Below the pieces are notes generated by a model, which was not told the origin of the DNA, did not search any database, and saw nothing but the letters and a program-made list of their open reading frames with translations. A stretch of DNA of 64,000 nucleotides from Candidatus Harrisonbacteria bacterium (GTDB lineage: Bacteria > Patescibacteriota > Minisyncoccia > UBA6257 > 1-14-0-10-44-23): contig JAHFLF010000001.1 of NCBI GenBank assembly GCA_023255625.1, positions 504,074 to 568,073 of the forward strand. The letters run 5' to 3'. A program made the position numbers and the translations under genes. Positions 46,063-64,000 of this stretch are shown one piece after another (the first letter of the stretch is position 1; each line of letters opens with the position of its first letter).

Positions 46063-46134
46063 TTGTCATTCTGACGTACGCGGAAGAATCTCGCCGAAAG
46101 ACGGGTCGAGATCCCTCGGCTTCGGGATGACAAC
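46063..46134. repeat. MITE-like palindromic element, intergenic copy upstream of uvrA
   Basis: TGTCATTCTGACGTACGCGGAAGAATCTCGCC-GAAAGAC-GGGTCGAGATCCCTCGGCTTCGGGATGACAA; imperfect inverted repeat about 72 nt. Confidence 0.7.
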
Positions 46135-46139
46135 TAGAT

Positions 46140-48833
46140 ATGAAAAAACCAAACGAATTCATTAACAAAATTGTTATCAAGGGCGCGCGGGTTCACAACT
46201 TGAAGGATGTGAATTTGGAGTTGCCCAAAAATGAGCTGATTGTTTTTTCGGGGTTGTCGGGGAGTGGAAAAAGTTCGCTTGCATTTGATACGATTTTTGC
46301 GGAGGGGCAGCGCCGGTATGTTGAGTCTCTTTCGCCATATGCGCGGCAATTTTTGGGCCAGATGGAGAAGCCGGATGTGGACGAGATTACCGGGCTCTCA
46401 CCGGCCATTGCCATTGATCAAAAGGCGCACTCGCATAATCCGCGCTCAACCGTGGCAACGCTTACCGAAATTTATGATTACATGCGCGTATTGTTTGCCC
46501 GTGCTGGCGTGGCGTACTGCCCAACCTGTGGTCGCGCTATTCGTAAAATGGCGCCAGAAGAAATTGTAGACACTATTCGCGACGAGGCGGCGAAGCGTAA
46601 GGTGCAGCATGTCACGATCATGGCCTCAATGGTGCGTGGACGAAAAGGCGAGTACTTTCAACTGCTTCAGGATTTGTTTCGCGATGGATTTAACGAGGCG
46701 CGGATTGATGGCAAGACGGTTTCGCTGCACGAAAAAGTTGAGCTGAAGCGATATGGTGCGCACACGATTGATCTGGTTGTAGACAAGGTCATGCCCTCGG
46801 ACAAGTCTCGATTATTTGAGGCGGTGGAGACGGCGCTGACCAAAGGCAAGGGGTTAATTTCAGTTGCGTTTGGGGATCCGGCAACCGTTCGTCATTCTGA
46901 GCGCAGCGAAGAATCTCGCCGGAAAAAGGGGCGAGATCCTTCGGGCATACCTCAGGATGACAAAGGGGAGGATGTGCCGCAGTGGGAGCATGACCTTGAG
47001 GCGTCAAAAAAATTAGACAGCGAGATCCTTCGGCTTCAGGATGACAAGCAGGGAAACGAACAAATGTTTTCGGCGCACTGGAGCTGCCCGCACGACGGAT
47101 TTTCGTTTCCGGAGATTGAGCCGCGCCTGTTTTCATTCAACAGTCCATTTGGCGCGTGTGAGGAGTGCCATGGCATTGGGCATGATTTTTTTGACTCGGC
47201 AAAGGTCTGTGCAAGGTGTAATGGCGCGCGGCTGCGCCCCGAGGTACTATGCATCCGGCTCGGCGGTAAAAATATTGACGAGATTGTGTCGCTGACAATT
47301 GACGAGGCCTATGAATTTTTTGCGGACATTGAGCAACACTTGTCTACGAGCCAAAAAGTAATTGCCAAAAATGCTCTGAAAGAGATTACTGACCGTTTGG
47401 AATTTTTGCTGGAGGTTGGGCTGGATTATATAACGCTCAAGCGCGAGAGCGGCACCCTCTCTGGCGGCGAGGCGCAGCGTATTCGGCTGGCATCGCAGAT
47501 CGGCAGCAAACTTTCCGGCACGCTGTATGTTCTGGACGAACCAACGATTGGTTTGCACGAGCGCGACAATGAGCGGCTCATTAAGATTATGAAGGAGCTG
47601 CGCGACCTGGGCAATACGCTGATTGTGGTTGAGCATGACGAGCGAGTCATTCGCGAAAGCGATTATTTTGTGGATATTGGCCCGGGGCCGGGAGTGCACG
47701 GCGGGCAGATTGTGGCGGCCGGAGAGATGCCAGGAATTTTAAAAACTGCAGGCAAGGAATCTTTGACAGCGCGGTATTTGAGAGGTGAGGAGGAGATTGT
47801 AATTCCAAAAACACGGCGCGAGAAAGATAAGGGCTGGCTCAAGATTATTGGCGCAACTGCCAACAATATTCAAAATTTAAATGTAGAAATTCCGCTGGGA
47901 CGGCTGGTCTGCGTGACGGGTGTATCAGGTAGTGGGAAATCAACGCTGCTAGAGGAAGTTTTGTATCGCAACACGCAGAAGATGCTTGGCGGGTTTCAAA
48001 ATCTTGTAGGAGTGTCAAAAATACTCGGCGTTGAGTTTATCCGCCACATTATTGAGATTGACCAGTCGCCGATTGGCAAGACGCCGCGGAGCAACCCGGC
48101 AACTTACACCGGCGTGTTTGGCCCGATTCGTGATTTGTTTTCAATGCTTCCTGAAGCCCAGGAGCGGGCCTACGGCGCCGGCCGGTTTAGTTTTAATGTG
48201 CCTTCGGCGCGTGGCGGTGGGCGGTGTGAGGCCTGTGAAGGTGCTGGAGCCAAGATTATTGAGATGCACTTTTTGCCGGATGTTTTAGTAACCTGCGATG
48301 TCTGCCGCGGTAAGCGGTTTAATGCCGAGACACTGGAGGTGAAATATAAAAATAAAAGCATTTCACAGGTTTTAGACATGACGGTTGAGGAGGCGCTTAC
48401 GCACTTTGACGGCGTGTACCGCATTACCGATCACTTGCGGGTCATGAACGAAGTGGGACTTGGGTACATTAAGCTCGGCCAATCAGCGACAACGCTCTCG
48501 GGCGGTGAGGCCCAGCGCATTAAGCTGGCAAAAGAGCTCGCTCGGCCCATGGCACGCCATGATTTGTTTATTTTAGACGAGCCGACGACCGGACTGCATT
48601 TTGAAGATGTTAAGATGCTGCTGGAAGTTTTACAAAAGTTAGTTGAAAAGGGGAACACCGTGATTTTAATTGAGCACAATATGCATGTGATTAAAGTGGC
48701 GGATTATTTGATTGACATGGGGCCGGAGGCGGGCGTGCGTGGCGGCAAGGTGATTGCGGAGGGGACGCCGGAAGAAGTGGCGAGAAGTGCAAAATCAATC
48801 ACGGGGAAATATTTGAAAGAGTATTTGAGGTAG
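46140..48833 (+). CDS. uvrA: Excinuclease ABC subunit A
   Basis: Two ABC ATPase modules (GLSGSGKSSL; GVSGSGKSTL), zinc-finger Cys clusters, LSGGE signatures; contains a full and a half MITE-like element in-frame (46891..46973; 47020..47048). Confidence 0.9.
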   Translation: MKKPNEFINKIVIKGARVHNLKDVNLELPKNELIVFSGLSGSGKSSLAFDTIFAEGQRRYVESLSPYARQFLGQMEKPDVDEITGLSPAIAIDQKAHSHNPRSTVATLTEIYDYMRVLFARAGVAYCPTCGRAIRKMAPEEIVDTIRDEAAKRKVQHVTIMASMVRGRKGEYFQLLQDLFRDGFNEARIDGKTVSLHEKVELKRYGAHTIDLVVDKVMPSDKSRLFEAVETALTKGKGLISVAFGDPATVRHSERSEESRRKKGRDPSGIPQDDKGEDVPQWEHDLEASKKLDSEILRLQDDKQGNEQMFSAHWSCPHDGFSFPEIEPRLFSFNSPFGACEECHGIGHDFFDSAKVCARCNGARLRPEVLCIRLGGKNIDEIVSLTIDEAYEFFADIEQHLSTSQKVIAKNALKEITDRLEFLLEVGLDYITLKRESGTLSGGEAQRIRLASQIGSKLSGTLYVLDEPTIGLHERDNERLIKIMKELRDLGNTLIVVEHDERVIRESDYFVDIGPGPGVHGGQIVAAGEMPGILKTAGKESLTARYLRGEEEIVIPKTRREKDKGWLKIIGATANNIQNLNVEIPLGRLVCVTGVSGSGKSTLLEEVLYRNTQKMLGGFQNLVGVSKILGVEFIRHIIEIDQSPIGKTPRSNPATYTGVFGPIRDLFSMLPEAQERAYGAGRFSFNVPSARGGGRCEACEGAGAKIIEMHFLPDVLVTCDVCRGKRFNAETLEVKYKNKSISQVLDMTVEEALTHFDGVYRITDHLRVMNEVGLGYIKLGQSATTLSGGEAQRIKLAKELARPMARHDLFILDEPTTGLHFEDVKMLLEVLQKLVEKGNTVILIEHNMHVIKVADYLIDMGPEAGVRGGKVIAEGTPEEVARSAKSITGKYLKEYLR
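46891..46973. repeat. MITE-like palindromic element, full copy in-frame within uvrA (encodes ..RHSERSEESRRKKGRDPSGIPQDDK..)
   Basis: Near-identical to the uvrC copy at 51058..51130. Confidence 0.7.
47020..47048. repeat. Half-copy (right arm) of the MITE-like element in uvrA (encodes SEILRLQDDKQ)
   Basis: GCGAGATCCTTCGGCTTCAGGATGACAAG. Confidence 0.5.
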
Positions 48834-48843
48834 CGGCGGTATC

Positions 48844-48968
48844 GGTTCCTGGTTTTTGGTTTGCCCCAGACCGGCCCCGTCTATCTGCGCGCGGCTCGCG
48901 CAGCGACTCCTCTCGGCCTCCTCGGCCTGCGAGAGGGCCGCCTTGCGTCAAACCAAAAACCAGGAACC
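48844..48968. repeat. Perfect 20-bp inverted repeats (GGTTCCTGGTTTTTGGTTTG / CAAACCAAAAACCAGGAACC) flanking an 85-nt GC-rich spacer, between the uvrA stop and the GC-rich Cys-repeat gene
   Basis: Seen directly. Confidence 0.5.
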
Positions 48969-49082
48969 TCAATATTTAGTTTGATAATTTTATATAGGTG
49001 GAGTAGGGTAGAAAAATGACTGTGTGCAGAGTCCCTGCGCAGGTCAAGCCGGCTACGAGCTGGCGGAAGGAGAGAGGAAATC

Positions 49083-50210
49083 ATGGCGAGGACATTGTCT
49101 CGGTCGCACCTATCGCGATCGTCGCTCGGATCAAGGTGTTTCGGCGGGGGCGTCAGCATGCGTTTCTGCTGTACATCGGGTCGGCCCGGAGTGGTCAAGA
49201 AGGCGAAGCCGCCTGTGGAGGCCGCCCCTCCGAAGCCCACAATGACTTTCAGCCCGGAGCCTTCTGGCATTCTGTGCGGTGAGTGCGGCAAGCTGAAGGC
49301 GACTCGCCGAGTGGCGTGGGACGGCAAGTTCGTGGGTCGTATCTGCGAGCAGGTCGCCTGCGAATGGAAGGCCATCGAGGACGGCAGTTCCTGGAGGCCG
49401 CGGGTTCCGGCCCCGGCCAGGAAGCCGCAGCCGGCGGTATCCGCCCCGACGGCCAGCCGTGAAGACACGGAGCGGGCCGCTGCTGGGAGGTTCGTTCGTG
49501 AGGGCAGGAGACCCATGCGGCCGGGCAGCGTCGTTCAGCCGAGTTCCCGGGCGACGACGCCCGCACCAGCGGCTGGCATCGATTCCAGTCGGATCAAGGC
49601 GGGTGTGAGGGGATACATGGATGCGTCCAAGAGATGCGTCTGCGGAGGGCATGCGTTCTACGACATCTCTCTCGACGGCGTCCTCATCGGGCAGGCGTGC
49701 TGGGATTCCGCATGCCACAGGAAGTTGGCCACGCAGCATGAGGCAGGGAGCAGCGTGCCGACCGCTGCTGCGACGCCTGCTGTCGCTGACCGGTGGTTCA
49801 CGAAGCCGTTGTCGGCCCGCTCGAGTGGTCTCAAGTGTGCAGTCTGCGGAGCACTCGCGCACTACGAGCTTCTACGCAATGATCGGCCAGTCGGTCTTCT
49901 GTGCTGGCTGGACATCTGCGAGACGACGCTCAAGGAGAGCATCGCCTCCAACAAGCCGCAGGCGGTATCCACCGCGAGCGTCCAGCCCGCGCCCGTGGAC
50001 ATGCGGCATTCGGTGGGGACAGCCGGTTTGTGCAACTTCTGTGGCCGTAGGCACTGGCTGGATATGTCGTTCTACGCGCCTAACGGCGAACTGCTCGGTA
50101 CTAGCTGCATCGAACCTGCCTGCGTCGCCAATGCGAAGGCGAGGGCCCGTCTGGGCGAGAGCTGGACCCAGAAGCAGCCGGCGGCTTCTGGAGGAGGCGG
50201 GCCCCACTAG
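49083..50210 (+). CDS. High-GC protein with four tandem Cys-ribbon-like repeats (CxxCG-x15-19-C-x4-6-C) separated by Pro/Ala-rich linkers
   Basis: Repeats CGECGK..GRICEQVAC / CVCGGH..GQACWDSAC / CAVCGA..GLLCWLDIC / CNFCGR..GTSCIEPAC; GGAGAGAGG ribosome-binding site; about 65% GC; the exact start is uncertain. Confidence 0.5.
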   Translation: MARTLSRSHLSRSSLGSRCFGGGVSMRFCCTSGRPGVVKKAKPPVEAAPPKPTMTFSPEPSGILCGECGKLKATRRVAWDGKFVGRICEQVACEWKAIEDGSSWRPRVPAPARKPQPAVSAPTASREDTERAAAGRFVREGRRPMRPGSVVQPSSRATTPAPAAGIDSSRIKAGVRGYMDASKRCVCGGHAFYDISLDGVLIGQACWDSACHRKLATQHEAGSSVPTAAATPAVADRWFTKPLSARSSGLKCAVCGALAHYELLRNDRPVGLLCWLDICETTLKESIASNKPQAVSTASVQPAPVDMRHSVGTAGLCNFCGRRHWLDMSFYAPNGELLGTSCIEPACVANAKARARLGESWTQKQPAASGGGGPH

Positions 50211-50266
50211 GGGCTCACACTCGCTGGAGTTCCGTGGGATTCCAGCTACAACTACGGGGCGCGCTC

Positions 50267-50309
50267 GGACACCATGCCGAGCGCGCCCGCAATTTTTTTG
50301 GATTTTTTA
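50267..50309 (+). terminator. Rho-independent terminator of the Cys-repeat gene
   Basis: GGGCGCGCTCGG/CCGAGCGCGCCC stem followed by GCAATTTTTTT. Confidence 0.7.
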
Positions 50310-50327
50310 CATATTATCTATAACTGT

Positions 50328-50361
50328 ACTAGTCGCTTATTCGCGCGAATTAGAGACTAGT
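50328..50361. promoter_or_regulatory. ACTAGT-flanked palindromic motif with ATTCGCGCGAAT core in the uvrC upstream region; an inverted 24-nt copy lies inside uvrC (51265..51288)
   Basis: TCGCTTATTCGCGCGAATTAGAGA is the exact reverse complement of 51265..51288. Confidence 0.45.
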
Positions 50362-50639
50362 TGTTTTTGGGTCGGAGTATCAGCTATACTAACCGCTCAC
50401 GGGTTCTTCTGCTTTTGAAAAATTAAAGTTGTTCGGGTATGGTATAAGCGGCTCCGCAGTGCTTTGAGGGAGCACCGAAGTACAAAGATGCCAGGGTGTT
50501 GTTGATAGGATTCTGAGCCAGCGAACTCGCCGTTTTTATCTTTTCCGGCGACGGAGGCGAAAGAATTATTCAATGACCAGTTCCCTCGTTGCAGTCGTGT
50601 CCGGGCGCGGCGCACTCGTCGCGCCCGGAATATACTTGT

Positions 50640-52118
50640 ATGAACTTGGCGATTTATGAAAAATTAAAGAAAATTAGTAAAAAATTTCCGAACAAGCCAG
50701 GGGTTTATTTCTGGCGAAATAAAAAAGGTGCGCCGCTGTACATTGGCCGGGCGGGGAGTTTAAAAAAGCGGATTGCGAATTACTTCGTCACGCCGAAGCT
50801 CGGCGAAGGCGGATCTAGATTAGACCCGCGGATTCGCGAGATGACGCAGGTGGCGCATTCGCTGGATTTTGAAGAGACGGATTCTTTGCTTGAGGCGATT
50901 GTGCTTGAAGCGAATTTAATCAAGCAATACTGGCCCAAATACAATATCTTGGAAAAGGACGGCAAGTCGTTCATTTATCTAGTTATCACCGACGAAGAAT
51001 TTCCAAGACTGCTTCTTGTCCGCGGCCGTGAGTTGGATAAATATTCCGTTAGCTTACGTCATTCTGAGCGCAGCGAAGAATCTCGCCTCAAAACGGAGCG
51101 AGATCCTTCGGGCGTACCTCAGGATGACAAACAAAAAAAGAAAAGGAAGCAGTACGGTACTTTGGGCGTATTTGGACCGTACCAAAGTTATTATCTATTG
51201 CGCAAAGCTTTAGAGATTGTCCGCAAAATTTTCCCGTATTCAAATTGTCGTCCCCCTGACTATTCTCTAATTCGCGCGAATAAGCGAATAGTCAGTAAGC
51301 CCTGCTTTCACTATCAGATCGGCTTATGCCCGGGCGTGTGCGTTGGCGCGATTGATGCAAAGACATACCGTAATAATATCCGTAATTTAATATTGTTTTT
51401 CCGCGGTGAGAAAAAGCAACTGCTCAAAAAATTGCAGAAAGAAGAAGCTTTACCCTCCAAAACTTTTGGGAAAAGTTTGGGAGGGCGAGACGCTATCTTG
51501 GCGCTTAAGCAGGTTCGGGACACGGCGCTTTTGGCTGATTCTGATGTTTTGCTGCGTGGTAATCAGCTCACTGACCGACGGATTGAGGGGTATGACATCA
51601 GCCACTCCGGTGGCAAACAGCCGGTGGGGGCAATGGTGGTGTTTGAGAATGGCGAGCCGGCGCGCGATCAGTATAGGTTGTTTAATATCCGTGGCCCTGC
51701 ATCCTCTTCCGCTATCAACTATAAACTATCAACTATAAACTCCTCCGATGATTTGGCCATGTTGCAGGAAGTTTTGGGGCGGCGGCTCAAACATTCCGAG
51801 TGGCCGTTGCCGCAGATTGTGTTTGTTGACGGTGGCGTAAATCAGGTACGGCGGGTGAATGCCGTGCTTAAGCGGCATAATTTGACATTGCCGGTCGTTG
51901 GATTAGGAAAAGCTGGCCAGCATGCCGCATCGTCGGCCGGGCAGGACAAGTTGGTCGTAGCAAATGCAAAAAAAACCGGTAAAGAATTAATAATTGCGTC
52001 ACGGAATCTATTTCAGCAAGTGCGTAACGAAGCGCACCGGTTTGCAATCAGTGCGCAGCGCCGGCGCGGCAAAAATACTTTCTTGCCGCGCCGACTGCCA
52101 CCTATCTATCCGTCTTAA
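50640..52118 (+). CDS. uvrC: Excinuclease ABC subunit C (short form; ends after the RNase-H-like endonuclease domain, with no C-terminal helix-hairpin-helix (HhH) tail)
   Basis: GIY-YIG N-domain (PGVYFW...PLYIGRAG.LKKR...YF), the UvrBC-interaction region, the C-terminal endonuclease motif EAHRFAI; contains an in-frame MITE-like element (51058..51130) and a palindrome (51257..51298). Confidence 0.85.
   Translation: MNLAIYEKLKKISKKFPNKPGVYFWRNKKGAPLYIGRAGSLKKRIANYFVTPKLGEGGSRLDPRIREMTQVAHSLDFEETDSLLEAIVLEANLIKQYWPKYNILEKDGKSFIYLVITDEEFPRLLLVRGRELDKYSVSLRHSERSEESRLKTERDPSGVPQDDKQKKKRKQYGTLGVFGPYQSYYLLRKALEIVRKIFPYSNCRPPDYSLIRANKRIVSKPCFHYQIGLCPGVCVGAIDAKTYRNNIRNLILFFRGEKKQLLKKLQKEEALPSKTFGKSLGGRDAILALKQVRDTALLADSDVLLRGNQLTDRRIEGYDISHSGGKQPVGAMVVFENGEPARDQYRLFNIRGPASSSAINYKLSTINSSDDLAMLQEVLGRRLKHSEWPLPQIVFVDGGVNQVRRVNAVLKRHNLTLPVVGLGKAGQHAASSAGQDKLVVANAKKTGKELIIASRNLFQQVRNEAHRFAISAQRRRGKNTFLPRRLPPIYPS
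51058..51130. repeat. MITE-like palindromic element, full copy in-frame within uvrC (encodes ..RHSERSEESRLKTERDPSGVPQDDK..)
   Basis: GTCATTCTGAGCGCAGCGAAGAATCTCGCC-TCAAAACGGA-GCGAGATCCTTCGGGCGTACCTCAGGATGACAA. Confidence 0.7.
51257..51298. repeat. 42-bp imperfect palindrome inside uvrC (CTGACTATTC...ATTCGCGCGAAT...GAATAGTCAG)
   Basis: Seen directly; its core is shared with the promoter-region copy. Confidence 0.45.
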
Positions 52119-53205: not shown

Positions 53206-53303
53206 AATGTTAATGTATTAATTAATAATGCGTATACAAATATAGACGGTCTGCAAGACAGAATATTTCAAAGTTTGCTTGTAGGCGCTGGCTCGGGTAG
53301 TAT

Positions 53304-54260: not shown

Positions 54261-54272
54261 TTGATGAGCGGT

Positions 54273-54821: not shown

Positions 54822-54840
54822 ATTTTTGTTTTAATTTTTT

Positions 54841-55176
54841 TTAGGAGAGCGCTTTTTTTGCTGCTCTGGTTTTCTTACGATTTTTTTCCTGTCCCGCCAG
54901 AAGATTTGCTATTTTTTGATCCAGCAGGTCGTATGCCGCCTGCCTTATTGTATCGCGTGGAACATTTGCGAACTTTGAATCCGGCTGGCGGTCAACAGTT
55001 CTATCGATGGCGCTTTTGGCATTTTCTGTCCGTTCGTGGACCGTTCCTATGCCGTATGTTTCTGTAAATACAGTGAAACAGGTTTCTGCTATGTCGCCAG
55101 CCAGCCGCCTTAATTCGGCACTTTCATCACGGGCGCTCACTTCTTGTTTTGCAGGGTCAATTCCTTCGGATGTCAT
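54841..55176 (-). CDS. Hypothetical protein
   Basis: 111-aa ORF. Confidence 0.3.
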   Translation of the reverse strand: MTSEGIDPAKQEVSARDESAELRRLAGDIAETCFTVFTETYGIGTVHERTENAKSAIDRTVDRQPDSKFANVPRDTIRQAAYDLLDQKIANLLAGQEKNRKKTRAAKKALS

Positions 55177-55235
55177 GCTGCTATTATGACAGCAGTAGTA
55201 ATCTCAAAGCAAGCCCGCTATTATATACAGACGAT

Positions 55236-56150
55236 ATGGCTAAGTCCTTATTACATAGGCCGCTGCTTGGTGCCCATGTGTCTGCCGCGGGCGGACTGTG
55301 GAATGCAATTGATAACGGCGAGAAGCTTGGCGCGGAGTGCATTCAAATTTTTGGCGCCAGTCCGCGGAGTTATACAGCTAAACTCCCGACAGCTGAAACA
55401 ATCGTGCGTTTTCAGCAGCGGCTCAAAGAGAGTCCAATCAAAAAAGTGTATCAGCACGGGGCGTATCTGGTGAATCTTGGGAGCGCTGATACGGCGACCC
55501 TGAAGCGGTCAATTGGAAATCTAGCAGCACATCTAGAAATCGCAAACTTGATTGGTTCTGAAGGAGTTATTTTTCATGTGGGTTCGCCTAACGGCGGTGA
55601 TCGTCCGGCGGCGCTTGCAAGCGCCGCCGGAGCAATGAAAGAAATTTTGGGAAAAATAAAAGGCCCGGCGCAGCTCATTATGGAAAATTCCGGCAGCGTG
55701 AAAAAGATCGGCGGGAGTATCGCAGATCTAGAATGGATTTTCAAAAAAGTAAATGATCCGCGGCTCAAAATTTGCATTGATACCGCGCACGCGTTTGAAG
55801 CGGGCTTAATCGAGGCATACACACCGGCGAATATAAAAAAGTTTTTTGGCGCATGGGATGAAGCGGTCGGGTTAGAGAATGTAGTTGCGCTGCATGCGAA
55901 TGATTCAAAGACGCTCTATAATTCGCAAAACGATAAGCATGAGAATATCGGGCAGGGGTATATTGGTATTGCCGGGTTTCGGGCTTTGGCCGGTTTTGCG
56001 GCGAAGCCGCAAAACCGGCTGACCCACACCAGCTGGTTTTTAGAAGTTCCCGGGTTTCCCGCCGGAGGCGGGTCCGCCTCCGGCGGAGACGGGAAACAAA
56101 ACGGTCCGGATAAGCAGAATATGGATTTGCTGAAGAGCTGTTTTGGCTGA
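55236..56150 (+). CDS. nfo: Endonuclease IV (AP endonuclease family 2) with C-terminal in-frame palindromic insertion
   Basis: LLGAHVS..GG, the characteristic His/Glu/Asp metal ligands (HG.YL.NL; H.NDSK), start at MAKSLL. Confidence 0.85.
   Translation: MAKSLLHRPLLGAHVSAAGGLWNAIDNGEKLGAECIQIFGASPRSYTAKLPTAETIVRFQQRLKESPIKKVYQHGAYLVNLGSADTATLKRSIGNLAAHLEIANLIGSEGVIFHVGSPNGGDRPAALASAAGAMKEILGKIKGPAQLIMENSGSVKKIGGSIADLEWIFKKVNDPRLKICIDTAHAFEAGLIEAYTPANIKKFFGAWDEAVGLENVVALHANDSKTLYNSQNDKHENIGQGYIGIAGFRALAGFAAKPQNRLTHTSWFLEVPGFPAGGGSASGGDGKQNGPDKQNMDLLKSCFG
56058..56087. repeat. 30-bp palindrome CCCGCCGGAGGCGGGTCCGCCTCCGGCGGA, in-frame in nfo (encodes PAGGGSASGG)
   Basis: Differs from the uvrB/dus copies only at the outer positions of the left arm. 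Confidence 0.8.
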
Positions 56151-56164
56151 TAAACTAACGGTGT

Positions 56165-56980: not shown

Positions 56981-57060
56981 TTTGCAATTGTCAGTTTTGA
57001 CATGGCGGATTGAGATGTTATGCTGAATAGAACATTATTCAATATAAGTTTATAGTTTTT

Positions 57061-58287
57061 ATGTTTAAAAAAATATTGTTGGCGGTCGGGATACTGGCCG
57101 TAGCGTTTCCGGTCGCTGTTTTTGCGCAGGAAGTCGAAACACCAAAAGCGCAACTGCAACTGCAGATGGAAAATCTTAAGGCGCAGGTTGAAGCGATGAA
57201 TAAAGCAAAACTGGAGAAACAGGTAGAAGAGTTAAATGCTCGATTGAAGGCGACTCCTCCTACGGCTAGGCCAGATACGAATAAAGTACCACCACCTCCG
57301 AACATTGGTGTAAATGCAACTGTCGGTGTTGGCGCGGACGCTGTTTTACAGAACGGAACTGTTTCGAAGCCCCCGGCTATTCGTGGCGAAGTTCGTAAGG
57401 AGGTTCAGCAAGAGCGTCAAGAAATTAAAGATGTTCGTCAGGACGCGCGTCAGGAGATTAAAGAAATTCGAACTGAAAATCGCGGCGAAATAAAGGAACT
57501 TCGGCAGGGCGTAATGCAGGAGGTGAAAGAAAATCGCCAGGAGTTTCGTGAAGAGCAAAAAAATAATAAGCAGGAGTTACAACAGGATCGCAAAGATGGT
57601 CGCGTTGAGGTTCAGGTAGAGGTTCAGAAAATTCGCGCTGACGCATCTTTGACCGCAGAGCAGAAAGAAGAAAAATTACAGGAATTGCGGCGGCAGTTTG
57701 ATGAGCAGCGAAAGGCGGAAATGGAAAAGTTTCAAGAGGAGCGCAAGCAAGAGATGGATAAATTTCAAGCTGCGCAAAAGATAGCGCGGCAGCAGTTTGA
57801 AGTTAAGCGGGTGGCTGCACAGCAGGAATTTCAGGCCAGCTTGAAGGTGGTCAAAGATGAGCGGAAGAAAGAAGTTGCCGGTCGGGTTGTCGAAAACTTT
57901 AATGCAATTAATGCGAAGTTGACCGGGCAGATGGCTGAAACTGTTGGGAAGATTGATGCCGTTCTTGCCAAAATTGTTGCCCGCGCTGATGAGTTGGGCG
58001 GAGCGGGGAGAGATGTAGCCGCGGCCCGTACTGCAATCGAAAATGCCCAGTTAGCGATCAGTGCGGCGCGTACCGCAATTACTACGCAGACTGCCCGTTC
58101 ATATACGGTTGAGGTTACAACTGAAGCGAATCTAAAAACTGATTTTGGCGCAGTTCGAGTTCGACTGGAAGCCGACTTGAAGATTGTTCGCGTGGCTGTT
58201 GACGCCGCCCGCGATGCGGTCAAACTTGCCGGGGCGGCATTGCCCGGCGTAACCATAACTGCAACGACGAACGCGGTAGTTCAGTAA
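57061..58287 (+). CDS. Secreted coiled-coil protein with EIKE/RQE-rich repeats
   Basis: Signal peptide; low-complexity charged heptads. Confidence 0.5.
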   Translation: MFKKILLAVGILAVAFPVAVFAQEVETPKAQLQLQMENLKAQVEAMNKAKLEKQVEELNARLKATPPTARPDTNKVPPPPNIGVNATVGVGADAVLQNGTVSKPPAIRGEVRKEVQQERQEIKDVRQDARQEIKEIRTENRGEIKELRQGVMQEVKENRQEFREEQKNNKQELQQDRKDGRVEVQVEVQKIRADASLTAEQKEEKLQELRRQFDEQRKAEMEKFQEERKQEMDKFQAAQKIARQQFEVKRVAAQQEFQASLKVVKDERKKEVAGRVVENFNAINAKLTGQMAETVGKIDAVLAKIVARADELGGAGRDVAAARTAIENAQLAISAARTAITTQTARSYTVEVTTEANLKTDFGAVRVRLEADLKIVRVAVDAARDAVKLAGAALPGVTITATTNAVVQ

Positions 58288-58305
58288 TAATATATAAAAT
58301 ATTTT

Positions 58306-58542
58306 ATGGATAAAAAAATACCGACTTGGATTTTAGTAGTCGTTCTCGTTGTGGCCGCGGCCCTGCTTGTCTGGTGGATTTTGATGCAAAAACAGGAAGC
58401 TGCTTCGATTGCGAATCGCAGTTCTGAAAATGTTTCCAGTAATGTTCCTCAAAATGAATACGCGCAGGAACTTGATGGGCTGAATGAAGCCGAAGTTAGC
58501 GCCGAGTTTCAGCAAGTAGACGCTGATCTGCAGACCCTATAA
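58306..58542 (+). CDS. Small membrane-anchored protein (tentative)
   Basis: ORF. Confidence 0.3.
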   Translation: MDKKIPTWILVVVLVVAAALLVWWILMQKQEAASIANRSSENVSSNVPQNEYAQELDGLNEAEVSAEFQQVDADLQTL

Positions 58543-58588
58543 CGGATATTTTTCTGGGCCACTGTAATTTTGTGGTACAGTAAATTAT

Positions 58589-59068
58589 ATGTCTGTAAAA
58601 ATGTCGATCGCTGTTCTTGCAGTATTTGTTGTTCTTTCAGCAAACAATTTATACGCCAAGGAGACTGCTTCAATTTCTGATTCCGCACCGGTGCGGCTGG
58701 CGACGGCCGTGCTTACCGCCATCAACTCTTTTGCTAAAGGACAGGCGGAAAATTTGTCAAAAATCAAACAGAAAGTTGATGCAGAGGTAGCAGTCTTAAT
58801 CGCGCAAGAAAACGCCAGCACGACCAAGCCATTTGCTGCGGGTCAGCACATTGATAACCTCAATGATGCCGGCGGTGGTAGTATTGCAACCTCATCACCT
58901 ACCGCCGCACCCTCTTTAGAGCGATTGTCCAAACAGGCCTATTCTTGGCTTTTGTATGCGCTTATTTATATTTTGAGTACACCATGGCTGCTCTATAGTG
59001 TACTAGTAATTATTCTGTATTGGATTTATCGTTTCCACAGGCGGCGGCGGTTTGAGCGCGCTGGTTAA
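58589..59068 (+). CDS. Hypothetical protein with signal peptide and C-terminal TM
   Basis: ORF. Confidence 0.4.
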   Translation: MSVKMSIAVLAVFVVLSANNLYAKETASISDSAPVRLATAVLTAINSFAKGQAENLSKIKQKVDAEVAVLIAQENASTTKPFAAGQHIDNLNDAGGGSIATSSPTAAPSLERLSKQAYSWLLYALIYILSTPWLLYSVLVIILYWIYRFHRRRRFERAG

Positions 59069-59077
59069 ATCTAACTT

Positions 59078-60145
59078 ATGCAGCAAGGATTTTGGGCAAA
59101 GTTACAAAAGCCAATTTTTGCGCTTGCGCCGATGGCCAATGTTACGGACGCGGCTTTTCGGCGCATCATCGCGAAGTACAGCCGGCCGGCTGGGCCAGCG
59201 GTTTTTTGGACAGAGTTTGTCTCGGTAGAAGGATTATTATCACGCGGGCGCGAAAAGTTGCTGCCGGATTTTTGGTTCACGGAAGCCGAAAGGCCAATCG
59301 TGGCGCAGATTTTTGGCGGTAAGCCGGAGCAATTTTATGAAGTTGCCAAACTGATTGTTTCTCTTGGCTTTGATGGGATTGATATTAATATGGGTTGTCC
59401 AGACAAAGGCGTAGAAAAATCCGGCGGCGGAGCGGCATTAATAAAAAATCCGAAGCTCGCGCAAAAAGTTATTTTAGAAACTAAGCGGGGAATAGCTGAT
59501 GCGTCCGCCAGTGGACGGAGTTCAATTCCGGTTTCAGTAAAAACGCGTCTCGGATATAATAAAGATGAAATAGAAACCTGGTTGCCAGCGCTGTTTGAAA
59601 CTGGTTTGGCGGCGCTCACAATTCACCTGCGCACGCGCAAGGAGATGAGTTTGGTGCCCGCGCACTGGGAATGGGCGAGCCGGGCCGTCGCACTACGCGA
59701 TAAATATGGTCCGGAAACTTTGCTACTCGGAAACGGCGATATTCCGAATCTTACTGTCGGCCGTCAACTGTCCGCTGACCACGGACTTGATGGCGTCATG
59801 CTCGGCCGCGCTATTTTTGGCAATCCGTGGTTGTTTGCCGAAAAAATTCCAACCACCGAAGAAAAATTGAGCGTCTGCGTAGAGCATACAAAATTATTTG
59901 AGGAATTGTATGGTGCAGGCACCGTCCAGTCCGTCATCCCGAAGCCGAGGGATCTCACCCCTCGCATCAAGCCCTTTGACTTGATGAAAAAGCATTTTAA
60001 GGCCTATGTCAGCGGTTTTTCCGCCGGAGGCGGATCCGCCTCCGGCGGAGATGGTGGAGCATTAAAGGTACTGCGCATGAAAATGATGGAAGCGGAGACC
60101 GCGCAAGAGATTGAAAAGATTGTTGCGAATTTTTTTAAAAAATGA
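59078..60145 (+). CDS. dus: tRNA-dihydrouridine synthase
   Basis: N-terminal LAPMA..TD..FR, the catalytic-Cys region, the FMN-binding TIM-barrel pattern; carries a half MITE-like element (59933..59958) and the 30-bp palindrome (60020..60049) in-frame near the C-terminus. Confidence 0.8.
   Translation: MQQGFWAKLQKPIFALAPMANVTDAAFRRIIAKYSRPAGPAVFWTEFVSVEGLLSRGREKLLPDFWFTEAERPIVAQIFGGKPEQFYEVAKLIVSLGFDGIDINMGCPDKGVEKSGGGAALIKNPKLAQKVILETKRGIADASASGRSSIPVSVKTRLGYNKDEIETWLPALFETGLAALTIHLRTRKEMSLVPAHWEWASRAVALRDKYGPETLLLGNGDIPNLTVGRQLSADHGLDGVMLGRAIFGNPWLFAEKIPTTEEKLSVCVEHTKLFEELYGAGTVQSVIPKPRDLTPRIKPFDLMKKHFKAYVSGFSAGGGSASGGDGGALKVLRMKMMEAETAQEIEKIVANFFKK
59933..59958. repeat. Half-copy of the MITE-like element, inverted orientation, in-frame in dus (encodes SVIPKPRDLTPR)
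   Basis: GTCATCCCGAAGCCGAGGGATCTCAC. Confidence 0.55.
60020..60049. repeat. 30-bp perfect palindrome TCCGCCGGAGGCGGATCCGCCTCCGGCGGA, in-frame in dus (encodes SAGGGSASGG)
   Basis: Identical to the uvrB copy. Confidence 0.85.
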
Positions 60146-60166
60146 GCCCACGCGCCGCCACAGGGG

Positions 60167-60637
60167 CTAGCAGATGGGCTCAACGATTTCGTAGATCGCC
60201 CAGACGATCCAGAAAATGATTCCGAACAAGACGACCGCAGACCAGAACAGCGTGTAGCCGTTCAGATGATCGGACCAGGTCACCTTTTCGGGAGACTGCG
60301 CGTCCTCGTCCCCAGGGTCTTCCTCCTCTGATTCGTCGGGATCAGAGGCGAAGTCGTCCTCGCCATCGTCCTCGCAGTCCTGCGGATCACAGAACGATGC
60401 GTGCCTCATGTGCTCTATGAAGAGGTCTAGTTGGCTGGACGAGAGGGGAAGGTTCTCGCCAGGTTTTAGTCTCGCGGCATGCATCCAGAGGAATTCTATC
60501 CTCAGCTCGGCGGTACTTCTTGAGTCTCCGTTGCTCGTGAAGTAGCCGAGGACCAGATTGTAAGTCTCCTCGGCAGCGTCTCTGCCAAGGCCGCAATCCG
60601 GACACGCGTCCGGATCATCGTCCACATCATGCGACAT
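60167..60637 (-). CDS. High-GC acidic protein (CPDC pair near N-terminus, poly-acidic stretch, C-terminal TM)
   Basis: 156-aa ORF; about 60% GC. Confidence 0.45.
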   Translation of the reverse strand: MSHDVDDDPDACPDCGLGRDAAEETYNLVLGYFTSNGDSRSTAELRIEFLWMHAARLKPGENLPLSSSQLDLFIEHMRHASFCDPQDCEDDGEDDFASDPDESEEEDPGDEDAQSPEKVTWSDHLNGYTLFWSAVVLFGIIFWIVWAIYEIVEPIC

Positions 60638-60771
60638 GGGATTCTCCTTCTGCGTGAGGGGTTTAGGGTCAATAAGACAATATCAAAATTGCATTTTCCC
60701 GTCCGTTCGTCAAATGTGACTCGGGCCGCCGACAGGGTGTGTCGGCGGCCCGAAGCGGGTGCGCGATGGCT

Positions 60772-60915
60772 TCATCGCGCGTCCGAATCATCTTCCACTC
60801 GTTGCGGAAATTGATCCGGTTGATCGCTGTCGCGTCCGTAGGAACGCGTTGGCGGTGGATATTGCGGTTCCCGGTCTTCGTCGCGCCAGACCGGCAGCTC
60901 GAACGGTTCGGCCAT
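60772..60915 (-). CDS. 47-aa acidic, proline-rich small protein (tentative)
   Basis: GGAGGG ribosome-binding site 5 nt upstream; 1 nt after the stop of the upstream small ORF (translational coupling). Confidence 0.3.
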   Translation of the reverse strand: MAEPFELPVWRDEDREPQYPPPTRSYGRDSDQPDQFPQRVEDDSDAR

Positions 60916-60916
60916 C

Positions 60917-61015
60917 TCACCCTCCGTTCATGTGGACGCCTTCGCATCCGGTGAAGCATGCGACGATGATCAGGGCGATGGTCCAGATGATCGCGAAAAT
61001 GTCTCGTTTGCTCAT
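60917..61015 (-). CDS. 32-aa membrane peptide MSKRDIFAIIWTIALIIVACFTGCEGVHMNGG (tentative)
   Basis: AGGAG ribosome-binding site; single TM helix. Confidence 0.3.
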   Translation of the reverse strand: MSKRDIFAIIWTIALIIVACFTGCEGVHMNGG

Positions 61016-61025
61016 TCTGAAACTC

Positions 61026-61415
61026 CTACCTGGTCTGACTTCCGATTCGTTGCGCCCGCAGCTCCATGCGGATTGCGTAGACCCGTTCGAGCAGAGCGAG
61101 GCGTGAGAGGGGGCGACCCTTCTCGTCGCAGAGAAGCAGGCGTCGCGCCGACATCTCTTGCTGATAGAAGCGCTTGAATGAACTATTCCGGGCTTGGTGT
61201 TGCAGCATCTCCTTGATGCCGATCCACGCCCAGAATGCATTCAGGCCGACGAATACCCATGTTCTGCTAAGCGTAGCGCTGATGGATAGGAGGAGTGCCC
61301 CCATTCCGTTCATGCTCGCGAGCAGGAGTTGTCGCTTGTCGCCCCGACTTGCCAGCCAGTAGGCGACCAAGAGCATGGTTGCGCCGCAAATGCCGGCAAG
61401 ATCTCCTATCCCCAT
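61026..61415 (-). CDS. High-GC membrane protein (3-4 TM), unknown function
   Basis: AAGGAGG ribosome-binding site 8 nt upstream. Confidence 0.45.
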   Translation of the reverse strand: MGIGDLAGICGATMLLVAYWLASRGDKRQLLLASMNGMGALLLSISATLSRTWVFVGLNAFWAWIGIKEMLQHQARNSSFKRFYQQEMSARRLLLCDEKGRPLSRLALLERVYAIRMELRAQRIGSQTR

Positions 61416-61566
61416 GTGTGCCGCCTCCTTGTTGCGGTACTTTCTTTATATTCTCTTGTTATGATTTGGTCAAATGTCTTAGCTTGGTCTATTCTGTAAG
61501 CATGAACCGGGCAGTGAAAATGCGAGTAGTGCCCGGAAATATTAACACTCGCATTTCTACTGCCCG

Positions 61567-64000
61567 GTGAACTTTGCCCAAGAACTAAAAAAATTAAACC
61601 CCAAGCAGCGGCAGGCCGTTCTAGCCATTGAGGGGCCGGTGATGGTTGTGGCGGGACCGGGCACGGGCAAGACGCAGATTTTGACGCTGCGGATTGCTAA
61701 CATTTTAAAGACGGCTCAAGTCGAGCCGGAGAATATTCTGGCGATCACTTTCACCGAGTCGGGCGTTGCAGCGATGCGCAAGCGGCTGGCCGAGCTCATT
61801 GGCAGCGAGGCGTATGGTGTAACGATCACAACCTTTCACGCATTCTGCAATAACATCATCCGTGAGCACCCCGAGAGCTTTCCGCGGATTATCGGCTCTA
61901 CGCCGATGACGGAGGTGGATCAAATGAAGGTGTTAGAAGCGCAAATCGCAAAGCGCAAAGCGCCAATTTTGAAACCGTTTGGTGAGCCATTGTTCTACGT
62001 AAAGGACATTGCTAAGGCGATTGACGAGTTAAAGCGCGAAAATATTTCGCCGGAGCAGTTTGCAAAAATTGCTAAGCAGGAACTAAAAGATGCCGAGAAT
62101 GATCCCGAGGCGTATCACGCAAAAGGCAAATTTAAGGGGCGGCTCAAGGGCGAGTACGCGCGAGCAATAAAGCACGCGCAGAAGAATATTGAACTTGCGC
62201 AGATTTACGAGGCATATCAGCAGGCGCTTACTAAACAGAAACGGTATGACTACACTGACATGATCATGGAGGCGGTTAAGGTTCTGGGAAGTAAGGAGGG
62301 GGTGCGTTTTGGCTTATTATTTGAGTTGCAGGAAAAGTATCAATATGTGCTAGTTGACGAGCATCAGGACACCAACAACGCGCAGAATAAGTTGCTGGAG
62401 CTCATCATGAGTTTTCACAAAGACCCGAATTTGTTTGTGGTCGGTGATGCCAAGCAGGCGATTTACCGTTTCCAGGGTGCCTCACTGGAAAACTTTTTGT
62501 ACTTTAAGAAATTGTATCCGCGCGCGAAGTTGATTGAGCTAACCGACAACTATCGCAGCACACAACATATCCTGGACGCCGCACATTCCATTACGAGAGT
62601 GGACGAAATCAAGCTGATCGCCCGCGCAGACCATCCGAAGCGAGAGATTTTGACCGCTGCGCTTTCCAGTGATGTCGCCGAACAATATTTCGTCGCTAAA
62701 CATGTTAGCGAGAGGTTGGCCTCTGGCGTGAGCCCGCACGAGATTGCAGTGCTGTATCGCAATAACAAAGATGTGCTGCCTATCGCCATGATGCTGGAGC
62801 GGTTGAATATTCCGTTTACCATTGAATCTGCGCAAAACATTTTTGATGATCCGGAGATAAAAAAATTGCGCACACTTTTGACTGCAATCGCCAAGTTTGG
62901 CAATCACGAGTTTTTGGCCGTCTTACTCTATGCTGATTTTCTGGGAATTGATGCTCTCGACGCCCACCGAGTGATTGCGTATGCGCGCCGCCCTCGGCCC
63001 CAGTCTGTCATTGCGAGTACTCGAAGCAATCCATCTCCGCATCCCACCCGCCCACTTTCCATTTATGATGTCCTAAAATCCCCGCAACTCCTGAAAGCAG
63101 CCGGAGTAGAAAATCCGCAGCCATTCCTAAAACTCTACGAAAATCTTTCCCGCTGGCGAAGTGCGGCGCAGTATCACGGCGCTGGCGAGGTCTTTGAGAT
63201 TGCGGTGCAAGAGAGCGGTTTTTTGGCGCATATTCTTTCAAAACAAAACGGCGTAGATATTTTGCATAAATTAAATGTATTTTTTGACGAGCTTAAGGAT
63301 TTAACCGAACAAAGAGGATCGCTTGTGCTCCAGGAATTTGTTGAGTACTTAGATATGCTGGATGAGCACGAGTTACTAATTAAACGAGTACCCGCCGCCC
63401 ATCGCCAGATTGGCCGCGTTCGGCTCATGACCGCGCACGCCAGCAAAGGGCAGGAGTTTGATTATGTCTATATTATCGGGGCGGTAGATGGCCATTGGGG
63501 GAATAAGCGGAAAGTGGAGATGCTCAAGCTGCCTCGTAGTATCTACTCTCCCTCCGTCATCCCGAAGCCGAGGGATCTCGCCCCATCCGACTCCGACGAC
63601 GATCGCAACCTTTTCTATGTTGCTTTGACCCGTGCCCGCAAAGAGGTAGTGATTAGTTATGCCGAGGCAGCAGCAAGTGGTAAGGAGCAGCTGCCAAGCG
63701 AGTTTGTGGCTGACATTAAATCAGAACTTATTGAACAGGTGAGCGTTGAGTCGTATGAGGGAGATTTAGTAACTATGCCGCAGCTTATTTACCAAAAGCC
63801 AACTGCCGGGCAGCATAGGATCAAAGAAAAAGAGTTTGTCAGTGAGCTATTCCTGGAGCGCGGTCTTTCGGTTACGCATCTTAACAATTATTTAGACTGC
63901 CCGTGGAAATATTTCTTTGTTAATTTATTGCGTATTCCGGAGCATAAGAATAAGCACATGATGTATGGAAGCGCCGTGCACGAGGCGCTTGAAGTGTTTT
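61567..64000 (+). CDS. UvrD/PcrA/Rep-family ATP-dependent DNA helicase, N-terminal about 810 aa (runs off window end); probable GTG start
   Basis: LNPKQRQAV......P.MVVAGPGTGKTQ.LT.RIA, AITFTE.....M+.RL, TFHAFC, VDEHQDTN, GD..Q.IY.FQGA; absent from the ORF track because it is unterminated; contains MITE-like fragments at 63006..63032 and 63556..63582. Confidence 0.8.
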   Translation, partial: MNFAQELKKLNPKQRQAVLAIEGPVMVVAGPGTGKTQILTLRIANILKTAQVEPENILAITFTESGVAAMRKRLAELIGSEAYGVTITTFHAFCNNIIREHPESFPRIIGSTPMTEVDQMKVLEAQIAKRKAPILKPFGEPLFYVKDIAKAIDELKRENISPEQFAKIAKQELKDAENDPEAYHAKGKFKGRLKGEYARAIKHAQKNIELAQIYEAYQQALTKQKRYDYTDMIMEAVKVLGSKEGVRFGLLFELQEKYQYVLVDEHQDTNNAQNKLLELIMSFHKDPNLFVVGDAKQAIYRFQGASLENFLYFKKLYPRAKLIELTDNYRSTQHILDAAHSITRVDEIKLIARADHPKREILTAALSSDVAEQYFVAKHVSERLASGVSPHEIAVLYRNNKDVLPIAMMLERLNIPFTIESAQNIFDDPEIKKLRTLLTAIAKFGNHEFLAVLLYADFLGIDALDAHRVIAYARRPRPQSVIASTRSNPSPHPTRPLSIYDVLKSPQLLKAAGVENPQPFLKLYENLSRWRSAAQYHGAGEVFEIAVQESGFLAHILSKQNGVDILHKLNVFFDELKDLTEQRGSLVLQEFVEYLDMLDEHELLIKRVPAAHRQIGRVRLMTAHASKGQEFDYVYIIGAVDGHWGNKRKVEMLKLPRSIYSPSVIPKPRDLAPSDSDDDRNLFYVALTRARKEVVISYAEAAASGKEQLPSEFVADIKSELIEQVSVESYEGDLVTMPQLIYQKPTAGQHRIKEKEFVSELFLERGLSVTHLNNYLDCPWKYFFVNLLRIPEHKNKHMMYGSAVHEALEVF
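63006..63032. repeat. Variant palindromic fragment TGTCATTGCGAGTACTCGAAGCAATCC in-frame in the helicase gene
   Basis: Related to the GTCATTCTGAGCG...GAAGAATC arm of the MITE-like family. Confidence 0.35.
63556..63582. repeat. Half-copy of the MITE-like element, inverted orientation, in-frame in the helicase gene (encodes SVIPKPRDLAP)
   Basis: GTCATCCCGAAGCCGAGGGATCTCGCC. Confidence 0.55.

Follow-up and report, generated by a model that had tools for sequence, protein, structure and literature searches.

Repetitive extragenic palindromes (REPs) of the CGTC-tagged superfamily, described by Di Nocera, De Gregorio and Rocco in 2013 (BMC Genomics 14:522, PMC3733652), are defined by an unpaired CGTC tag (often TGTC), an 8-9-bp stem that nearly always has AT first, a loop of 4-5 nt and a 3-bp tail with the consensus CCA. 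Their dimers are predominantly head-to-head, with the tags facing outward, and rarely tail-to-tail, heterodimers being common and spacers measuring 20-100 bp; the repeats are located mostly downstream of genes, are thought to be transcribed and "apparently lack a dedicated transposase" (PMC3733652). Some units are intragenic, REPs having been recorded within uvrA, uvrB, uvrC, uvrD, recBCD, polA, dnaE2, tRNA synthetases, tRNA pseudouridine synthases and helicases, and both the Rickettsia palindromic elements (RPEs) RPE-4 and RPE-6 and the Neisseria repeat dRS3 (assigned to CGTC-1) were placed in the same class (PMC3733652). In the current work, a 64,000-nt stretch of the genome of a Candidatus Harrisonbacteria bacterium (assembly GCA_023255625.1, contig JAHFLF010000001.1, positions 504,074 to 568,073 of the forward strand; named here "the window") was found to contain ten hairpin units of this general design at seven places between positions 46,065 and 63,579. 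These are arranged as three head-to-head pairs (upstream of uvrA, in uvrA and in uvrC) and four single units (in uvrA, in dus and, twice, in the gene of a UvrD-like helicase). Judged from the architecture of the sequence, the units belong to the CGTC superfamily, with no assignment to any of CGTC-1 - CGTC-4, and we consider it probable, at about three chances in four, that they are (C/T)GTC-tagged REP hairpins, that is non-autonomous selfish DNA surviving in permissive loops.

The occurrence of these sequences exceeds chance expectation by each of the searches performed. The exact left and right arms are present twice each in the window (0 expected by chance), shorter arm cores occur 7-9 times (0.4-1 expected), and a strict hairpin-unit pattern recovers nine units compared to a null mean of 0.04. 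A covariance model (R1), the construction of which had been proposed in a preliminary description of this DNA, was built only from units of other genomes and recovers the same nine units with E <= 3e-4, while nothing else in the window falls below E = 0.5. The remaining unit, GTCATTGCGAG at 63007, has another core type and scores 7.9 bits with R1; it nonetheless displays the same architecture, is picked up by a looser pattern, and has near-identical counterparts in uvrA, uvrB and uvrC of a relative (L125). R1 is specific for the GA-GCGNAGC-GA core and blind to the variants of the relatives, for which the looser pattern was used. No unit was detected in approximately 68 kb of other sequence of this genome, including 6 kb after and 8 kb before the window. 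A stretch of uvrB (~42790-42850) was considered as a decayed dimer remnant and set aside, its similarity being weak only.

The preliminary description had listed seven copies or fragments of an element of about 72 bp within 18 kb. Direct reading of the sequence locates every copy where it had placed it or a few bases away, the end of the uvrA copy moving from 46973 to 46964 (Table 1), and the number of seven places stands, although these hold ten whole units rather than fragments. As indicated by the covarying unit stems, what had been taken for half-copies are complete single units, and the supposed full copies are head-to-head dimers.

Table 1. Hairpin units, their host genes and other palindromes of the window (positions are those of the window; scores are in bits)
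Feature	Position	Strand	Composition	Product	Score
uvrA	46140..48833	+		897 aa, intact	
uvrC	50640..52118	+	open frame from 50589	492 aa as called, intact	
dus (tRNA-dihydrouridine synthase)	59078..60145	+		355 aa, intact	
UvrD-type helicase with PD-(D/E)XK nuclease domain	61567..64000, continuing to 64629	+		1020 aa	
Intergenic head-to-head dimer	46063..46134		units 46065-46092 (+, stem ATTCT) and 46108-46131 (-, stem ATCCC)		27.1 + 25.2
uvrA in-frame head-to-head dimer	46890..46964		units 46891-46917 (+, stem ATTCT, core GCGCAGC) and 46933-46961 (-, stem ATCCT)	residues 251-275, RHSERSEESRRKKGRDPSGIPQDDK	46.3 + 31
uvrA in-frame single unit	47020..47048	-	unit 47022-47045, stem ATCCT, short core AGCC	residues 294-303, SEILRLQDDK	28.2
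uvrC in-frame head-to-head dimer	51057..51131		units 51058-51084 (+) and 51100-51128 (-)	RHSERSEESRLKTERDPSGVPQDDK	
dus in-frame single unit	59930..59961	+	unit 59933-59956, GTCATCCCGAAGCCGAGGGATCTC	SVIPKPRDL	
Helicase-nuclease in-frame variant unit	63004..63033	+	unit 63007-63033, GTCATTGCGAGTACTCGAAGCAATCC, CCA-type tail	SVIASTRSNP	7.9
Helicase-nuclease in-frame single unit	63553..63584	+	unit 63556-63579	SVIPKPRDL	
Palindrome family A	42594-42635 (uvrB)		perfect 30-nt TCCGCCGGAGGCGGATCCGCCTCCGGCGGA	in frame	
Palindrome family A	56051-56092 (AP endonuclease)		perfect 30-nt TCCGCCGGAGGCGGATCCGCCTCCGGCGGA	in frame	
Palindrome family A	60013-60054 (dus)		perfect 30-nt TCCGCCGGAGGCGGATCCGCCTCCGGCGGA	in frame	
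Palindrome family B	38855-38888 (alkylation-repair gene)		core CTTATTCGNNCGAATAAG		
Palindrome family B	50328-50361 (upstream of uvrC)		core CTTATTCGNNCGAATAAG		
Palindrome family B	51259-51292 (uvrC)		core CTTATTCGNNCGAATAAG		
Family B-related core	4321-4356 (intergenic)				

Each unit measures 24-29 nt and is composed of an unpaired YGTC tag, a 5-bp Watson-Crick stem, a tandem G·A, a small inner hairpin and a 3-nt tail. Within the tag GTC is invariant, the preceding base being C or T in all ten units of the window and T in the commonest flanks elsewhere. The stem begins with AT and its remaining pairs change by compensation (pair 4-24 is A-U in 40/40 units, while pair 5-23 is U-A or, by compensatory change, C-G); written as ATNNN-GA-GC, it has nine positions, corresponding to seven Watson-Crick pairs plus the tandem G·A. 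The inner hairpin is in its commonest form GC-GNA-GC, in which two pairs close a GNA triloop, so that the loop of the main variant counts 3 nt (or 5 nt including the closing pair), and the short variant carries a 4-nt AGCC loop. Of 219 units, 182 end in a CTC tail, and CCA is found in the 63007 variant and in units of the relatives. The latter units are canonical, with nine uninterrupted pairs (ATTGTCCGA with TCGGACAAT), a 5-nt loop and the CCA tail, as exemplified by TGTC-ATTGTCCGA-CCTGA-TCGGACAAT-CCA.

Evidence for this fold comes from the manner in which the two halves of a stem change together, the combinations ATTCT/AGAAT, ATCCT/AGGAT, ACCCT/AGGGT and ATGCT/AGCAT all being found among aligned loci of many phyla. 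Since the right arm co-varies within itself, each arm represents a hairpin of its own. Over 870 kb of loci belonging to many phyla, the strict unit search retrieved 219 units, compared to two in reversed-sequence controls; because the strict pattern demands complementarity itself, a retest was anchored on the conserved core with pattern-selected units excluded. In this retest all five stem positions are complementary in 47 of 67 units, with six different stems, and the inner 2-bp helix, which no filter had imposed, shows a compensatory change from GC to AU in four units. Among 58 core-anchored dimers, 35 are heterodimers with different stems in their two arms, and in these the stem complementarity within a unit (338/350 positions, 97%) may be set against an identity between arms of 248/350 (71%). 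Paired units of the 870-kb sample are head-to-head in 58 cases and tail-to-tail in 10 (all three window dimers being head-to-head); 6 to 84 nt separate the two members of a pair, and roughly half of the units are solitary. The conserved entity is the hairpin unit, rather than a 72-bp palindrome. The predicted fold of a single unit agrees with the proposed structure, and the GCGNAGC mini-hairpin has, according to a review (PMC13037366), a stability that lies outside standard parameters. A search of Rfam 15 returned no match for the window at gathering thresholds, and a permissive scan around the copies gave chance-level hits only (E > 5).

Visible copies in this compact genome, which is Parcubacteria-like and belongs to the candidate phyla radiation (CPR), are mostly intragenic, stop-free and in frame, and none of the hosts is a pseudogene: the alignment of UvrA with solved UvrA structures spans its full length (E = 1e-288), while full Pfam domains are present in UvrC (GIY-YIG and RNase H-like), in Dus and in the 1020-aa helicase-nuclease. 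Residues 243-303 of UvrA constitute a single 61-residue insertion between residues 256 and 260 of solved UvrA, near the end of what we take to be the UvrB-binding domain. UvrA was the sole host protein modelled, and its AlphaFold model, based on 62 homologs, has a mean confidence of 79, which drops below 50 over residues 248-279 and 291-304, the segments corresponding to the dimer and the single unit. The units of the helicase fall in gaps of its alignment with PcrA, the one at 63004..63033 in a 16-residue gap and the one at 63553..63584 in a gap of about 20 residues; the latter copy has 31 of 32 bases in common with the copy in dus. The view that the inserts occupy loops is consistent with these gaps and with the predicted model, and the more general claim of the preliminary description, namely that the element is a dispersed, palindromic insertion that coding genes tolerate in frame, is borne out by the intact hosts and the alignment gaps. 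The reading frames and peptides it had reported are likewise correct (RHSERSEESR..RDPSG.PQDDK in uvrA and uvrC, and SVIPKPRDL in dus and the helicase gene). As read from the sequence, stop codons are absent from four of the six frames of the main unit, so that in-frame survival needs only selection against the remainder.

With respect to the host protein itself, the named sequences most closely related to this UvrA belong to Parcubacteria, Harrisonbacteria and Paceibacterota. UvrA of the window and of its CPR relatives comprises approximately 830 aa without the inserts, and has no counterpart of residues 305-421 of the 962-residue solved UvrA, a segment that is presumably the 'insertion domain' of class I UvrA. 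The sequence GEDVPQWEHDLEASKKLD, located between the units of uvrA, persists in one clade of relatives, including members that no longer have the units, and perhaps derives from the spacer of a former dimer.

An alignment of 70 UvrA homologs illustrates the turnover of the inserts. In many of them nothing is inserted in the loop between GLISVAFG and NEQMFSAHWSCP, and where this loop is filled it contains different unit variants in different frames (SVIPKPRDL..IPRQARNDR, SVIVRPDRTIQ..DPRVKPEDDR, SVIASARSNP..DRHGVPRDDK, LRHSERSEES..KPQDDK and VVASTRSNP). In a comparison with four syntenic relatives (L124, L125, L219 and L220), the uvrC site that carries a dimer in the window was half-decayed in L124 and vacant in L125, and the insert region of dus was variable in the L124 ortholog. 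One dimer type is common to uvrA and uvrC in L219, GTC(A/G)TTGCGAGTACNCGAAGCAAT occurs in uvrA, in uvrB and twice in uvrC of L125, and a single unit is present twice in uvrA of L220. The likeness of the variants inside any one genome, set against their divergence at orthologous sites from genome to genome, indicates copying or gene conversion within genomes.

The family extends far beyond this lineage. The left arm (GTCATTCTGAGCGNAGCGAAGAATCTC, as an exact 27-mer) was scanned against one genome per species and matched at least 120 genome loci in many phyla, including, among the matches listed, Chloroflexota, Acidobacteriota, Nitrospirota, Bacteroidota, Verrucomicrobiota, Planctomycetota and Cyanobacteria, as well as Clostridia, Helicobacter, Saccharimonadales, Omnitrophota and several proteobacterial groups. 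The same 27-mer is present in 92 viral contigs, and in these phyla and viral contigs the family is situated mostly between genes. Of these viral contigs (loci L126-L217), about 35, with L137, L157, L161 and L163 as examples, form one group with common structural proteins. Their several single units all point the same way and are placed directly ahead of a ribosome-binding site and its start codon; in this group the downstream gene starts on the same strand in 33 cases and on the opposite strand in 17. One Patescibacteria-like metagenome population, whose ValRS is closest to that of Patescibacteria, contributed 127 units in 515 kb of pattern-selected loci, these units being mostly of the short ATCCC/AGCC variant, as in dus and the helicase gene, and their dimers being head-to-head in 18 and tail-to-tail in two cases.

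Two further palindrome families share the neighbourhood of the CGTC-type units (Table 1). Family A is always in frame, where it reads (S/P)AGGGSASGG(E/D); L124 and L125 lack its inserts in their orthologs of uvrB and the AP endonuclease gene, as does L124 in that of dus, and the palindrome was not found in any of the other loci fetched. Family B accounts in uvrC for an 11-residue insertion, DYSLIRANKRIVS, relative to two relatives, and in the alkylation-repair gene for the residues ALIRTNKGIV, at which point the ortholog is seven residues shorter.

The distribution of all these inserts over genes is uneven. Within the 23 kb from uvrB to the helicase gene, palindromic inserts are present in five of five DNA-repair genes and in dus, and in none of 14 other genes. 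In five syntenic genomes, every unit within approximately 10 kb of uvrA lies in uvrA, uvrB or uvrC, to which the window adds the copies in dus, the helicase gene and the leader of uvrA. Moreover, strong local hairpins, with stems of 11 bp or more, number 31 in the window, compared to 2-10 in shuffled sequence, and sorting by hand against the gene tables placed nine of these within repair genes (10 kb) and about five within the whole of the other genes (~43 kb). Strong hairpins are located, for instance, at 33472-33517, 15524-15561, 51453-51485 and 55989-56019, and several lie in uvrC or the AP endonuclease gene where relatives are shorter.

A different picture emerged from the metagenome sample, which was chosen regardless of repair genes: 88 of 110 units lie outside long open reading frames (ORFs), and the 21 host ORFs encode ValRS, IleRS, LeuRS, TGT, QueA, TruB, SHMT, AcrB, a glycosyltransferase, one UvrD-type helicase, four members of the alcohol dehydrogenase family and seven proteins without an assigned domain (one of these unscanned), with uvrA, uvrB and uvrC not among them. 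The zinc alcohol dehydrogenase genes (~342 aa; L260, L275, L285 and L292, on separate contigs) carry the short unit variant inside their coding sequence, and these units may represent one old insertion inherited by orthologs. A doubled form of the insert peptide, used as a 54-aa protein query, yielded 54 word-sharing candidates, none of which scored.

The bias towards repair genes is real in this lineage and consistent with the literature. The concentration in nucleotide-excision-repair genes, on which the preliminary description had remarked, thus stands for the lineage; it is not new, having been published in 2013, and it does not carry over to the metagenome sample, in which intragenic units reside for the most part in genes of tRNA synthetases and tRNA-modifying enzymes, and not in uvr genes. 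The common factor of the hosts is that they are large modular enzymes acting on DNA or tRNA, which fits loop tolerance at least as well as targeting, and a mechanistic link to repair genes is possible but unlikely. The counts of host genes are small, and orthologous sites are not independent of each other.

Several other explanations were weighed against the selfish-hairpin interpretation. The preliminary description had proposed a miniature inverted-repeat transposable element (MITE) of about 72 bp, possessing terminal inverted repeats and mobilised by a DDE-type transposase from elsewhere in the genome, with the halves as deletion products. This agrees with the full copies being imperfect inverted repeats that fold well as RNA (-30 to -39 kcal/mol, z = -3.4 to -7.3; -30 kcal/mol and z = -3.8 for the intergenic dimer) and with the 93% identity over 75 nt between the copies of uvrA and uvrC. 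It conflicts with the self-complementarity of each arm and the independent covariation of the stems, most clearly in the heterodimers, where complementarity within units exceeds the match between arms, and also with the variable spacers and the many solitary units. Nor was a target-site duplication seen at three dimers, which were inspected by eye with no systematic search run; no transposase family recurs near the copies, no related insertion sequence was found, and the sole recombinase of the window, a large serine recombinase, belongs to an unrelated island. The heterodimer statistics largely refute the MITE, which we regard as highly improbable; an insertion sequence with ends matching GTCATTCTGAG, together with insertion duplications, would revive it. 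The prospect that the inserts are removed before the protein functions, in the manner of an intron at the RNA level or of an intein at the peptide level, is practically negligible: apart from the fact that conserved proteins are interrupted, nothing further speaks for it, whereas the units are only 24-75 nt in length, match no catalytic RNA family and give peptides that differ in sequence and frame between orthologs, and other members of the class have been reported as translated RPEs (PMC3733652).

An unlikely explanation is that the hairpin is a functional RNA or extruded-DNA element selected by the host (a binding or processing site, a transcript stabiliser or attenuator, or a co-regulatory tag of repair genes), its dispersal being secondary. 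Conservation of the 27-mer across phyla, the dimer that stops 5 nt ahead of the uvrA start codon (ATG at 46140), the preference of the single units of the phage group for a position upstream of ribosome-binding sites on the same strand, and the location of published REPs, mostly downstream of genes and thought to be transcribed (PMC3733652), would all suit such a role. Set against these are the intragenic units, which occur in both orientations relative to the transcript, stems that are nearly always perfect Watson-Crick with no one-strand G·U excess (as judged by a G·T versus A·C mismatch test), and bacterial single units that show no orientation bias to downstream genes (11 versus 15). Furthermore, close relatives differ as to whether a site is present, absent or decayed and as to its position within the genes, and no Rfam family matched. 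A promoter and terminator scan around the intergenic dimer found nothing. A coupling of insertion to DNA repair, either through capture into or targeting of genes that are open or transcribed during the damage response or through repair-modulating inserts that aid survival of the element, is very unlikely in our estimation; the repair-gene bias would then stem from the mechanism and not from tolerance. It would be in keeping with the confinement of units near uvrA to uvrA, uvrB and uvrC in the five syntenic genomes, with the similar hosts of two unrelated palindrome families (uvrB, the AP endonuclease gene, dus, the alkylation-repair gene and uvrC) and with the same bias reported for other REP families in other phyla, but it is at odds with the metagenome sample, in which most units are outside long ORFs and none is hosted by uvrA, uvrB or uvrC, and it rests on the small, non-independent counts mentioned above. 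More broadly, it is distinctly improbable that hairpins are drawn to, or kept in, genes of DNA and tRNA enzymes via a real mechanistic link. In one version of such a link, insertion or conversion would take place on single-stranded DNA exposed there during the damage response, and in another the hairpins would be a shared cis-tag co-regulating repair genes in CPR bacteria, which are without a classical SOS regulon; the co-hosting of three families and the homogenisation across uvrA, uvrB and uvrC within a genome would then reflect an undescribed process and not simply loop tolerance.

According to the selfish-hairpin interpretation, which is the one we favour, the hairpins would be non-autonomous selfish DNA copied within the genome, either by a trans-acting enzyme recognising the folded single strand, for which the HUH tyrosine transposase acting on GTAG REPs provides an analogous model, or by gene conversion between copies. 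Selection would then purge insertions that break the frame or the fold, with survivors only in permissive loops of large modular nucleic-acid enzymes, where they would be translated as hydrophilic linkers of 8-25 residues. We infer this sequence of selfish copying via a folded strand or conversion, selective filtering and translation from the patterns described above. All-against-all clustering of ORFs revealed no recurrent transposase-like family in the at least 120 genome loci or in the 92 viral loci, the clusters near copies being common families only (histidine kinases, ABC ATPases and phage structural proteins). Gene tables obtained by matching the window to three European Nucleotide Archive (ENA) contigs and one NCBI contig of 601,890 bp contained no mobilising gene around the window, positions 27.8-36.1 kb being excluded, and no gene resembling a REP-associated tyrosine transposase (RAYT, an HUH tyrosine transposase) flanks any copy sampled. 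To our knowledge, no copying enzyme has been described for the CGTC class.

A number of observations weigh against the interpretation that we favour. No mobilising enzyme was found in the sampled sequence, so that the copying step is deduced, and translation of the inserts is likewise deduced from intact frames. All ten units lie within 17.5 kb of the approximately 86 kb examined from this genome, and it is not evident how plain tolerance would account for the lack of inserts in 14 other genes of the same 23 kb. A near-identical 27-mer across phyla is unusual for selfish repeats and could mean a conserved host function. In addition, single-unit folding energies (-1.9 to -2.8 kcal/mol as DNA) are no better than those of shuffled sequence, and it is therefore covariation, not energy, that supports the unit hairpin, while dimers fold far more strongly as one long hairpin.

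The remainder of the window includes two other features. A low-GC stretch (39-44%) at approximately 14100-27800, which is a 13.6-kb contig of its own in the ENA assembly, has genes at 16179-17792 (-) and 19742-24388 (+), encoding a large serine recombinase as well as a NACHT NTPase of 1548 residues. It resembles a mobile island that has become integrated, and it is free of the hairpin repeats. A 39-nt sequence is present at 11771-11809 and 43388-43426 in inverted orientation with 90% complementarity, one copy being located just after uvrB and the other before an ORF that starts at 11833, and this pair may be another dispersed element or a shared terminator.

For annotation purposes, RHSERSEES, VIPKPRDL, VIASTRSNP and PQDDK in predicted proteins are to be read as translated repeats, not as conserved domains. 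If the bias of these hairpins for repair genes turned out to be mechanistic, it would connect hairpin DNA with repair in a new way; if tolerance alone is reflected, the locus is an ordinary, though clean, example of selfish DNA in protein loops. Two questions on CGTC-REPs have been standing since 2013, namely which agent copies them without a linked transposase and why they are frequently seated in genes of DNA repair and tRNA enzymes. The window extends the class to CPR/Patescibacteria, and we suggest such bacteria as a useful test bed, a short list of candidate enzymes being expected because the contigs carrying the locus and those of close relatives measure only about 0.36-0.63 Mb (as contigs, which are maybe not whole genomes). 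Close relatives also offer occupied, decayed and vacant sites at identical codons, and each genome has a variant of its own that is copied among its uvr genes.

As regards the nearest known systems, the GTAG REPs and REPINs of Enterobacteria and Pseudomonas are similar to the window element in having an unpaired 5' tag, a hairpin, and an occurrence as singletons and inverted doublets, and some enterobacterial REPs even have the same loop, AAGCGNAGCGC. GTAG REPs are the only REP class with a demonstrated enzyme, RAYT, which cuts folded single strands; they differ in their tag (GT[AG]G versus GTC here), in the flanking RAYT gene, none being near the sampled copies, and in being species- or genus-specific in sequence, whereas the 27-mer of the window is common to many phyla. 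Neisseria dRS3, approximately CGTC-ATTCCC-N8-GGGAAT-C in its context, has the same tag, a stem with AT first and a tail starting with C, but has neither a tandem G·A step nor an inner hairpin of the GNA type; it forms clusters in intergenic mosaic arrays and is an insertion target of prophages and insertion sequences. A BLAST search with the consensus dimer matched eight plasmids (of Cyanobacteria, Bacteroidota and Sphingomonas) and one uncultured phage; since no megaplasmid of Agrobacterium or Sinorhizobium was matched, the sequence family seems distinct from the alpha-proteobacterial CGTC repeats. Searches of literature text retrieved unrelated primers only with the DNA arms and nothing with the translated peptides, and no paper linking REPs to CPR bacteria.

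The comparison with RPEs made in the preliminary description is apt in kind, given that RPE-4 and RPE-6 are members of the CGTC superfamily (PMC3733652). RPE-4, RPE-6 and RPE-1 are likewise palindromes that lie in frame within functional genes, in a reduced genome, and add surface segments to the proteins upon translation, although they have been described within Rickettsia and RPE-1 is a longer palindrome; the relation to the window element is based on the class definition of the literature, not on a comparison of consensus sequences. With the CGTC-REPs as a whole, the window element shares the tag, the AT-first stem, the short loop, the 3-nt tail, the head-to-head dimers with many heterodimers, the intragenic units and, in the sequence sampled, the lack of a linked transposase, while its main variant differs by the tandem G·A in the stem, the GNA triloop and a CTC rather than CCA tail. 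The published survey covers five phyla (PMC3733652), and CPR/Patescibacteria, together with most phyla matched here, are outside those; the present locus appears to be the first case noted in CPR. What is new here is the host phylum, the very wide conservation of the 27-mer, the series of filled, decayed and empty sites among CPR relatives, and the presence of three palindrome families in the same repair genes.

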